A stretch of 64,000 bases of DNA, from NCBI GenBank assembly GCA_012295275.1, contig CM022676.1:4216001-4280000 (forward strand), in the 5' to 3' direction. The DNA comes from Chrysomallon squamiferum (Eukaryota; Animalia; Mollusca). The translations under genes and the position numbers were made by a program. The notes below the pieces were generated by a model. The model did no database searches and was not told where the DNA came from. It was given only the letters and a program-made list of their open reading frames with translations. This document shows, piece after piece, positions 33,901 through 39,550 of the stretch (the first letter of the stretch is position 1; every line of letters begins with the position of its first letter).

Positions 33901-36900
33901 AGGTCGAAGGCATTCTTAAAATTATTTTTCGAAGTATCTTTTTTTTTTCTGAGGCGGCAGATAGGGTTAGAATATTAATCTTTTTGTAGTCATCTGGACT
34001 AAAGACATAAGGGTCATGCAATCATTGCCCTTATCTTTAGAAATGTTTAAAATTAACCCAGGTTTCCTTTTCATGGAATTGAAGGAAAAACATACTGTCA
34101 GACATAACAGACAACGTAGCTGCAATCACCCACTCTGACACCTCATGCACCATTTGCACGTGCTTAGCATAATTCAATGCCAATTTTAGCAATAAAAGCG
34201 ATGAACATTTTCATTTCATCATCACTTTTAAGTTGAAGATGGTTTTTGACGAGAACTGAGTTTTGCAAGACAGGTGAAGGGTCATTGGCTGGCTACAAGA
34301 TGGACACACTCAAAGATGTTTGGCTCACCGTCTAAATATAAGGCAAATTGTTATCTGTAGAATCTGAAAGAAATTCAGGACGACTAATTCTGGAAGACGA
34401 CGTTCAACCACAGTTCGAGGAGACCGACTGCTGATGATAACGACGTTCAACCACAGTTCGAGAACACCGACTGCTGATGATAACGACGTTGCAACAGCCT
34501 TTTGTGACGGCACGGCGTCTTCGTTATTAACTCAGAGATTGCACAGGCAACAATGTTTCTGATGAGAACGTTACTAATCGTTTGTAGTCAGCCCGTCACA
34601 GAAGGGGTCGCCTTCACCGGCGCAGACGTCATGTCCAGTACAGCATATCACAGATGAATCACAGGACTTCTCTAGCTGAGCGATGGGCGGGCTCGTGTTT
34701 ACCTTCCTCAACGAATTAGATTTGCTGATGTTAACGTTGTTCAGCATCTACGAGTTGGAGGAGAAAGTGGAATGGTGTGAGTAGGCGCACCCATGAATCA
34801 CAAAACCCAAATAAATAACTTGTCATTAGTCGTCAGAATTTCAGCATATTAGCTTATCGTTTTTTTCACAAACAATTTTTAACCCTTAACTTATTTTGAG
34901 TCGTATCTATTAACTTAATGTTACGTTTTTATTTTCAATAATGAATTTTCAGGCCCTGTAGACGACAGCAGTCAGTTTGGAAAAGAATTTGGCAGCGGTT
35001 TTGGAACTTTCTTCGTTCTGTCTGTTATCATTGTCATTGTCGTTGTTCTCTACGTTCGAAAGAAAAGAAGTATTTGTTTGTTTGTTTGTTTGTTATTTAT
35101 TTGTATGTTTGTTTGTTCTTCTTTCTTTGTTTCTTTGTTTTCATTCTTTTTAATTTTCAATGATTCTTTTTATTTTATTTTCTATTCTTTATTTATTTAT
35201 TCATTCATCCACTTGATCGTTCGATCATTTATTCATAGCTTCATACTAGTGTTTGTTTGTTCTTTGTATGTTTATTTGTTTCCTTGTTCTTTCATTTATT
35301 TTATTATGTATTTTAATTACACTTACCCATAGAGTAAAGGGGAGATAAATCAAGATTTCTTTACACAATTATCTTACACAGAGTAATCAAACCTGTTTTT
35401 GTGACCACCTGTGTATTTCAGCCACCTGATAATGACATGGCTGAGGTAAAAAATGATGTCTAAGAACAAGAACATTTAATGATAAATTTAATTTTAGACA
35501 GGCATAATGCTGAAAATGTTTCATGACTATGTCAGTATTCAAGTAGAGTGATTTAAGCACATAAGTATTGTGTACACATAGAAATAGCTAGTTTTAGGGT
35601 GACTACTACTACTACCACTACTTCATCCTACTAAAACTAAAATTATTACCACACTACTATGCTCATGATGATGAAAAGGTTGTTATTATTATTATTGTTG
35701 TTGTTGTTGTTGTTATTATTTTTTATTGTTGTTTTATTATTATTATTATTATTATTATTATTATTATTATTATTATTATTATTATTATTATTATTATTAT
35801 TATTACAGGAGAAAAGAACTCAACTTGGAACCAACAAAGGTAAATTATTTCATACTTTTTTACTATTTTTCTTTCTGTAAAATATAATTCATGTGTTTAT
35901 ATCCATCTGTCTATATGTGCTTATGTATATTTCTATGTATTTTGTGCGTTTATATATATGTGTGTATATGTATGTATATATGTATGTATATATATGTATG
36001 TTTTATGAATGTATATATGTATGTATATATGTGTTATGTATGTATGTATGTATATAAGTATGTGTGTATGTATGTATGTATGTATGTGTTTGCATTCTTT
36101 TTGCTCATTCTCGGATTAGTGCATCGAAGGATATGTAATATATTTTATTTACGCTTGCAATTTCAGAATCAGCAATGTGCATCAAAATACAGAGAATTCA
36201 TATTCTTCTCTAGAGGAAAGAGTAAATAACGTCCCATATGACGTCTTATTGCCTCGTGGTATGACGTCCAATATGACGTCTTATTTGTTAACTGGTGGTA
36301 AGTGAACTGACATTAATAAATGCTAAAGAAGAAAAATACGAGTATAGTTTGTTAACCATATATATATTATATTCAGACATTCATTCACGATATATATATA
36401 TATATATATAGATACATTTACATACATATATAATAGAATTTTGAGAAAAACTAGATTCTAAATATGAACGAAAAATAGTTTTATATAGATTTATAAATAT
36501 CTTTGTCTAGAAGTGTCTTTGTATGAAATGTTAAAATTGTTCTAGATTTTTAGAGAGACACTTTGTAAATGATTTTGAAATAGCTGTAAAATATAATACA
36601 CAGACACACTCTTAGATCGATGTATATGTATGTATCTATGTATTTGTGTATTTATACATATATACACAAATTAGGACGATTATTCTTTTCTCCGCACATC
36701 ACAATTTTTAAATAAAACAAAACATAATTTAATTCCATGTTACAGATAATCAGACTGCACCAGCAACAGAACTTCAAGATTCAGAGAATTCATATTCTTC
36801 TCTAGAGGAAAGAGGACATGAGTCCGCATATCTCGTCTTAATACCTGATGGTAAGTGAACTGATATTAATAAATGATAAAGTAGAAAACGAATATTGTTT

Positions 36901-39550: not shown

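Follow-up and report, generated by a model that had tools for sequence, protein, structure and literature searches.

A tandemly repeated exon with a predicted two-tyrosine activation motif in a putative immunoglobulin receptor gene of Chrysomallon squamiferum

How many activation motifs can the tail of one receptor carry, and does that number differ among neighboring genes? The question is raised by a 64,000-nucleotide (nt) stretch of the genome of the mollusc Chrysomallon squamiferum (assembly GCA_012295275.1, contig CM022676.1, positions 4,216,001 to 4,280,000 of the forward strand; hereafter "the window", whose numbering is used throughout). Six spliced genes or gene fragments (G1 to G6) cluster there, built from signal-peptide, V-type and C2-type immunoglobulin (Ig) exons, and four of the six also have transmembrane (TM) and tail exons; the Ig domains of the window exons were backed by Pfam. 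The tyrosine-based activation motif of immunoreceptors (ITAM), with the consensus D/ExxYxxL/I-x6-8-YxxL/I, is bound by the tandem-SH2 kinases Syk, ZAP70 and Shark, and CD3zeta carries three copies. A first-pass annotation of the window had described, in gene G3, a tandem array of exons with one such motif each. With moderate confidence, we read G3 as a single-pass Ig receptor in which four in-frame motifs, predicted to be spliced in series, are likely to act as activating ITAMs and to give a stronger signal than the single motif of its neighbors G4 and G6.

Motif exons, reading frame and transcripts

Joined at its splice sites, the G3 tail forms a single open frame from the juxtamembrane Ig exon to the stop codon and holds four copies of YSSL-x8-YxVL, one in each of exons A to D. 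The three 105-nt, phase 1-1 exons that had been proposed at 36746, 37840 and 38887 (cassettes B, C and D) were confirmed by their splice sites (CAG acceptor, GTAAGT donor) and open frame, and their starts are separated by 1094 and 1047 nt, as expected from the proposed period of ∼1.05 to 1.1 kb. In B, C and D alike no frame but the phase-1 frame stays open, and the same frame runs through the juxtamembrane Ig, TM and first cytoplasmic (cyt1) exons ahead of them; the possibility, raised by the annotation itself, that these exons are read in another frame was checked, and the remaining two frames are closed. Exon A, starting at 36167, had been counted in the same array. It does carry the motif, but with phase 2-1 it lacks the symmetry of B, C and D and is no skippable cassette. 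The cyt2 exon of G4 and G6 has the same acceptor and initial 7 nt, and the two in-frame donors of exon A give a length of 92 or 131 nt; positions 36259 to 36297 are a 39-nt internal duplication, the source of the second donor and of an extra Tyr (SYLL). A CAG ends at nucleotide 18 in all four 105-nt exons (the three of G3 and one of G2). The open G3 product would comprise ∼600 residues, provided that signal-peptide exon 1 is spliced to the first of the C2 exons.

The number of motif copies differs among the paralogs, as the annotation had held: four in G3, at least two in G2, and one each in G4 and G6. Both of the G2 motif exons that it named (24113 to 24204 and 24632 to 24736) are present, the second followed by a gap of 200 N. 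The single copies of G4 and G6 also stood, but each lies in a terminal exon, and that of G6 (YDVM) fails the strict ITAM core.

Splicing into the motif exon is supported by RNA contigs of paralogs. Contigs aligning to exon B at 80% numbered one in run X2, four in X3 and none in X4. Two of them, X2 record 9 and X3 record 10, have the 3′ end of a cyt2 exon (as in G6) abutting the motif exon directly, free of an intron, a join made by splicing and in the frame predicted. Past the junction, record 9 resembles the terminal, one-motif exon of G4. The motif occurs in record 10 (500 nt, depth 3.4) at 54 to 130, 183 to 217 and 398 to 427; the spacings of 87 and 210 nt are multiples of 3 and far below the genomic period of 1 kb, 210 being two 105-nt units and 87 being 105 minus 18 (compare the CAG ending at nucleotide 18). 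One paralog transcript thus likely holds three or four motifs in series, and single- and multi-motif transcript forms coexist among paralogs. The run search listed no RNA run for 36100 to 40200, which has no bearing on the expression of G3.

Beyond splicing, we infer each step. Clustering by ligand would lead to phosphorylation by Src-family kinases and to binding of Syk or Shark, through their tandem SH2 domains, to each Tyr pair spaced by 12 residues. The G3 tail would then recruit up to four kinases of the Syk/Shark type, with more copies giving more signal. The output would most likely be uptake of bacteria, by analogy with the oyster receptor CgIgR; G3 is likened to ITAM receptors by its sequence only.

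Consensus, conservation and competing readings

The strict core YxxL/I-x6-8-YxxL/I fits all four G3 copies, seven of the eight copies in the window (G6 has YxxM) and both tails compared from Gigantopelta aegis, the chemosymbiotic vent snail that holds the closest relatives of these genes. D or E stands three residues before the first Tyr in five of the eight window copies (three of four in G3) and in 0/2 G. aegis tails. The spacing of 12 residues between the tyrosines is constant in 8/8 window copies and in G. aegis. Because the window is microsatellite-rich (GC ∼30%, with two 200-N gaps), a looser ITAM pattern finds well above 100 matches in its six frames, arising from microsatellites, and the pattern alone is weak evidence in such repeat-rich DNA. 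What places the motif above chance is that splicing defines its frame, that G. aegis has a matching motif and that junctions occur in paralog RNA. A scan of chance symmetric exons found the core in 3 of 11 candidates, these being B, C and D themselves, a set too small to serve as a null. Against 1.84 billion representative proteins, a profile of the motif gave one match (P0001) and no further; P0001, a repeat protein without the tyrosines, was rejected as a chance hit.

Across the eight window copies N14, Y16, S18, L19, E21, R22, Y28 and V30 are invariant, and 38 of 81 nucleotide columns vary compared with none of the eight key positions (P = 0.0045, an optimistic value, as it includes Tyr third positions, copies related to one another and, in exon A, non-homologous first codons). 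Between G4 and three G. aegis proteins, both motif halves and their spacing are kept, with identities of 0 to 1 of 8 in the spacer and 0 to 1 of 12 upstream. The two-Tyr motif looks conserved by selection, because its halves and spacing were kept while the spacer diverged. Run X1 spans introns and so behaves as DNA; 174 of its contigs align to exon B and flanks at ≥80%, which points to a large, variable family. Among the contigs listed, substitutions fall at 21 positions of exon B, none of them in Leu codons or in the first two bases of Tyr codons, and a single synonymous change lies in the second Tyr codon; these counts cover all but eight rows, and aligning favors conserved cores. Summed X1 depth was not used as copy number, and three X1 joints, each from a single contig, were disregarded because they probably stem from repeats.

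Several observations weigh against our reading of G3. At the level of the motif, the long acidic ITAM consensus fits 0/8 window copies, and no Pfam family was found at E up to 1 in 5/5 motif exons (short queries, for which the HMMER filters are limiting). The consensus of the tyrosine-based inhibition motif of immunoreceptors (ITIM), (I/L/V/S)xYxx(L/V/I) as applied here from PMC2832619, fits the second Tyr in five of the eight copies (A, B, C, G2B and G4). The second Tyr could then be an ITIM, making the tail inhibitory or ambivalent: it would bind phosphatases of the SHP2/SHIP type, and G3 would be the inhibitory partner of the one-motif activating genes. The 35-residue repeat, which sets this Tyr 23 residues from the first Tyr of the next copy, and the loss in G2 and G3 of the YxN site that accompanies ITAMs speak for such a role, and paired receptors are common in clusters of this kind (PMC5112662). 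Nevertheless, we consider this very unlikely, as the position two residues ahead of the second Tyr is not conserved (V, S or F among the window copies, S or A in those of G. aegis), in contrast to the fixed spacing of 12 residues between the tyrosines. Such spacing suits tandem-SH2 kinases.

The other points on this side concern the cassettes as a whole, the transcripts and the integrity of the gene. B, C and D are 91 to 94% identical, compared with 90% for the introns between B and C and between C and D, and thus show no excess exon conservation; over codons 1 to 31 their differences comprise 0 synonymous and 6 to 8 nonsynonymous changes. They are recent copies without visible purifying selection on the whole exon. 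The annotation had looked to the ratio of nonsynonymous to synonymous divergence for conservation of Tyr and Leu: the codons of both are invariant, but the cassettes overall gave no such signal. At 36742 and 36817, near and in exon B, the window carries a letter that none of the listed X1 contigs has, so the exact copy of exon B is unconfirmed by X1. RNA of G3 itself was not seen, with 36680 to 36940 as the only alignment target for contigs; the X2 and X3 contigs are <90% alike to exon B and therefore come from paralogs rather than from G3. These contigs are low in depth, graph-built contigs may be chimeric, and the repeats could lie within one exon. Eight G. aegis proteins, unlike G3, have no repeated cassette, their tails carrying one two-Tyr motif and a terminal VTYENV. 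Finally, the first V exon is frameshifted, with stops, in G3 (304 nt), G4 (44399 to 44717; 319 nt, with many small indels) and G6 (60737 to 61049; 313 nt), that is, in three of the nine V1-type exons resolved, and the donor of one more exon was not found. G3, G4 and G6 are the genes with a complete tail, and nearly all their other exons are clean. The lesions could mean that this exon in particular has decayed, or that a hypervariable exon was poorly polished. A full-length G3 protein would require either that the first V exon be skipped, as in the G. aegis RefSeq isoform P0007, which lacks the first V domain, or that the frameshift be an assembly error.

With the frameshifted V exon, a second signal exon out of phase, the equal identity of exons and introns among B, C and D, and further broken exons in the cluster (a frameshift at 20868, a stop at 51446 and a truncation at 22437), G3 could be a decaying copy in a birth-and-death cluster. 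Its cassettes would have been multiplied by unequal crossing-over, their number would be unselected, and only the one-motif genes or other paralogs would work. We regard this as unlikely. Apart from the first V and second signal exons, eleven G3 exons are open with canonical splice sites, and all Tyr codons are retained. The ratio of nonsynonymous to synonymous differences per site (pN/pS; pairwise, not branch-specific) is 0.31 to 0.49 for the G3 C2 exon against five paralogous exons and 0.38 for the juxtamembrane exon. The paralog RNA contig with at least three motif copies at frame-compatible spacing also counts against decay.

Origin of the cassette and its relatives

Most likely, the cassette derives from the gene's last exon, which would have gained a splice donor. 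Two midpoint-rooted trees, of 7 and 8 short rows, separate the internal cassettes of G2 and G3 from the terminal exons with support of 100/99 and 100/100. The first 50 to 60 nt of the intron behind each cassette align with the 3′ untranslated region (UTR) of the terminal exons, and the ending of G4, FENK, aligns with FDNR of G. aegis. On read-through, Gly-Lys-stop lies behind six of six GTAAGT donors, with AATAAA, a possible poly(A) signal, 13 to 18 nt further on in five of six. Because of the FENK/FDNR match, the terminal read-through state appears ancestral and the donor derived. The ancestral gene would have ended in a last exon with a single motif, an arrangement retained by G4 and G6 and, judged from protein alignment, by G. 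aegis. The intron, last exon and start of the 3′ UTR would have been duplicated, and a GTAAGT donor would have arisen in the upstream copy shortly ahead of the former stop, giving a symmetric 105-nt cassette that further tandem duplication multiplied. In G2 and G3, a deletion would have taken out the YxN site and brought the first motif copy behind the acceptor of cyt2, as suggested by exon A, which consists of the cyt2 acceptor and first 7 nt and then motif sequence. The last exon of G3 has its own motif deleted, so that signaling by G3 would rest wholly on the internal copies. Assembly duplication was rejected as the cause of the array, the copies differing by 6 to 9% in exons and ∼10% in introns.

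With a stop kept just past its donor, each cassette could alternatively serve as a last exon. Tails of 1 to 4 motifs would then be made by termination rather than skipping, or only tails of one or two motifs would be made, a scheme compatible with our reading of G3 as a four-motif receptor. The recurrence of Gly-Lys-stop and AATAAA and the homology of intron starts to 3′ UTR speak for such composite exons. However, AATAAA occurs 4.7 times per kb on that strand, the copies have it by descent from a single ancestor, the donors match the consensus perfectly, and the true terminal exons of G4 and G6 lack AATAAA at the homologous place. No contig showed such an end, though contigs cannot reveal ends. 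We give this scheme only a slight chance of being correct.

The receptor family itself was traced with a profile of 12 V-type exons, which matched 5 proteins among 7994 candidates scored, all from G. aegis (51 to 58% identity, E = 1e-26 to 1e-65) and named CEACAM-like or uncharacterized; the closest "CEACAM1/5-like" RefSeq proteins are XP_041379697.1, XP_041346676.1 and XP_041372832.1. A full-length search (7 of 7988) added only one fish and one oyster protein at 23 to 30% identity, and a protein search with the juxtamembrane exon yielded none from nine candidates. G. aegis proteins resemble the G3 family in their V and C2 domains, juxtamembrane Ig (43 to 45% identity), Gly-rich TM start (TM exon, 33 to 41%) and an alignable motif exon; their tails resemble that of G4, with YxN followed by YSSL-x8-YEGL at the same spacing. 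One G. aegis gene has isoforms (P0003, P0007 and P0008) that lack the first V domain, lack the TM segment, or change frame beyond it and so lose all tail Tyr motifs. This variety resembles the long and short forms of CEACAM1. No description of the tails of G. aegis "CEACAM-like" proteins was found in the open-access literature. The CEACAM5-labeled orthogroup OG0000013 counts 130 genes in G. aegis, 103 in Bathymodiolus platifrons and 101 in C. squamiferum, all three symbiont hosts and the top three, compared with 59 in Lottia and 0 in Octopus and Euprymna (PMC7895826); going by the label, the G. aegis proteins above would belong to it. The same source annotates two Syk-like genes and one Shark gene in G. 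aegis, and reports Shark, Src-like kinases and four CEACAM5-like genes, possible members of the G3 family, as high in the symbiont-housing esophageal gland (PMC7895826).

A described molluscan counterpart is the oyster CgIgR, which binds bacteria and has five Ig domains, a TM segment and a cytoplasmic ITAM through which CgSyk is recruited (PMC6994640). It is, like G3, a mollusc Ig receptor with an ITAM tail, but a single ITAM is described for it (PMC6994640), and it was not among the matches of the V-profile or full-length protein searches, so that its likeness to G3 need not mean homology. Vertebrate ITAM CEACAMs such as CEACAM3 share with the snail cluster the clustered IgV/IgC receptors, ITAM-like tail and YxN, which accompanies ITAMs in Xenopus and marsupial CEACAMs; a YxxM variant of their second motif half resembles G6, and they have a role in the uptake of bacteria (PMC2832619, PMC5112662). 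Their ITAM is split by phase-0 introns, whereas the snail motif is whole in one phase 1-1 exon and repeated, and the family is described in these sources as vertebrate-restricted (PMC2832619, PMC5112662). A fish "CEACAM5-like" protein reached 23% identity in the full-length search, and the 22 PDB sequences matching the V profile, weak matches to TCR-beta and FcgRIIa, included no CEACAM. The N-terminal IgV domain of vertebrate CEACAMs is not known to have an intradomain disulfide; unlike it, all 12 V-type window exons aligned have invariant C22, C49 and C86. Judged from these features, the G3 family is not vertebrate CEACAM, and its resemblance to vertebrate ITAM CEACAMs is likely convergent.

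T-cell receptor zeta (CD247) also carries several ITAMs per chain, but it is a ligand-less adaptor with a fixed three, whereas G3 has ligand-binding domains and four motifs on one chain, with a count that varies among paralogs. ITAM multiplicity amplifies the T-cell signal (PMC4428620). The Hydractinia Alr cluster resembles that of the snail in its Ig-receptor genes and pseudogenes, tails with ITAMs or ITIMs, and a genome with both Syk and Shark; its tails are too diverse to align, and the part of the source covered here mentions overlapping ITAMs, not repeated one-motif exons (PMC9546547). ITIM and hemITAM tails occur in invertebrate Ig clusters (PMC11507803). No report of a repeated one-ITAM exon was found in open-access papers, a scope excluding the supplementary tail alignments of PMC2832619, PMC5112662 and PMC9546547, which may hold multi-ITAM tails.

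The surrounding cluster and what the array may mean

The features of G3 and the motif exons of its paralogs are collected in Table 1. The ectodomain of G2 is very long, with about three repeats of a four-exon V-C2-V-C2 unit (11034 to 22546, period near 3.1 kb), and is damaged: besides the frameshifted C2 exon at 20868, a V exon near 18915 is deleted and the C2 exon near 22437 is truncated. G2 has no juxtamembrane Ig exon. Over the TM exon and upstream intron, G2 and G3 (22700 to 23040 and 34730 to 35070) are 99% identical (338/341), with far lower identity further downstream; either a recent event of gene conversion or recombination or a join made in assembly could account for this. Two signal-peptide-like exons stand in tandem in G3 (27904/29641), G6 (63421/61847) and G1 (3447/2740); the second is one base short in both G3 and G6, a state common to them. 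Between the two of G3 lies a 300-nt insertion (28638 to 28952) with terminal inverted repeats, CAGTGGTACCTTGA at each end, likely a miniature inverted-repeat transposable element. In the G3 intron upstream of the TM exon, 34200 to 34750 is GC-richer, with a 43-nt tandem repeat, and is possibly a mobile-element fragment. G5 (50357 to 52467, minus strand) is a fragment comprising a signal exon, an intact V exon, a C2 exon with a stop and a V exon, and its end lies tail-to-tail with the region downstream of G4.

Table 1. Exons of G3 and motif-region exons of G2, G4 and G6 (window coordinates)
Feature	Position	Strand	Length (nt)	Phase	Details
G3 signal-peptide exon 1	27904..27961	+	58	0-1	Intact
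G3 second signal-peptide-like exon	29641..29697	+	57	ends in phase 0	Misfits phase-1 Ig exons; G6 alike
G3 first V-type Ig exon	30450..30753	+	304		Frameshifted
G3 C2-type Ig exon	31454..31714	+		1-1	Open; donor GTAAGT
G3 second V-type Ig exon	31965..32276	+		1-1	Open
G3 C2-type Ig exon	32569..32829	+		1-1	Open
G3 juxtamembrane Ig exon	33100..33378	+		1-1	Open
G3 transmembrane exon	34953..35069	+	117	1-1	
G3 first cytoplasmic exon (cyt1)	35809..35839	+	31	1-2	
G3 motif exon A	36167..36297	+		2-1	YSSL-x8-YDVL; alternative in-frame donor after 36258
G3 cassette B	36746..36850	+	105	1-1	YSSL-x8-YLVL
G3 cassette C	37840..37944	+	105	1-1	YSSL-x8-YNVL
G3 cassette D	38887..38991	+	105	1-1	YSSL-x8-YDVL; W (not D/E) three residues before first Tyr
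G3 terminal coding exon	39504..39550	+			Motif-exon homolog, motif deleted; stop 39548-39550; 3′ UTR-like DNA beyond
G2 motif exon A	24113..24204	+	92	2-1	
G2 cassette B	24632..24736	+	105	1-1	AAG acceptor; N gap 24847-25046 beyond
G4 cyt2 exon	49128..49174	+	47	2-1	YxN motif; lost in G2 and G3
G4 terminal exon	49429..49541	+			Single YSSL-x8-YEVI
G6 cyt2 exon	55765..55811	-	47	2-1	YxN
G6 terminal exon	55358..55488	-			Single YCSL-x8-YDVM, non-canonical core

ITAM-bearing Ig receptors were already known from molluscs and cnidarians, as was the scaling of T-cell signal with ITAM number. What is new here is that a last exon appears to have turned into a symmetric cassette with one motif and to have been piled up in as many as four copies, with one retained in neighboring genes. 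The vertebrate CEACAM motif, split across exons, is not copyable as a unit, unlike the snail cassette. A more far-reaching proposal, which we hold to be quite unlikely, is that the one-exon ITAM acts as a copy-number dial in a large snail receptor family. Genes would gain and lose cassettes, G3 would make tails of 1 to 4 ITAMs by skipping or by stopping behind donors, and the setting would govern the engulfment of bacteria, possibly including endosymbionts. If true, such a dial would be a genetically variable gain control, for which no counterpart was found in the open-access literature. The cluster offers a natural series of one, at least two and four motifs on near-identical TM segments, which could serve to probe whether invertebrate Syk and Shark signaling is tuned by motif number. 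As the closest relatives belong to a chemosymbiotic vent snail, which has an expanded family of like name, some of it expressed in the gland that houses the symbionts, the series could also bear on how hosts balance keeping their symbionts against digesting them.

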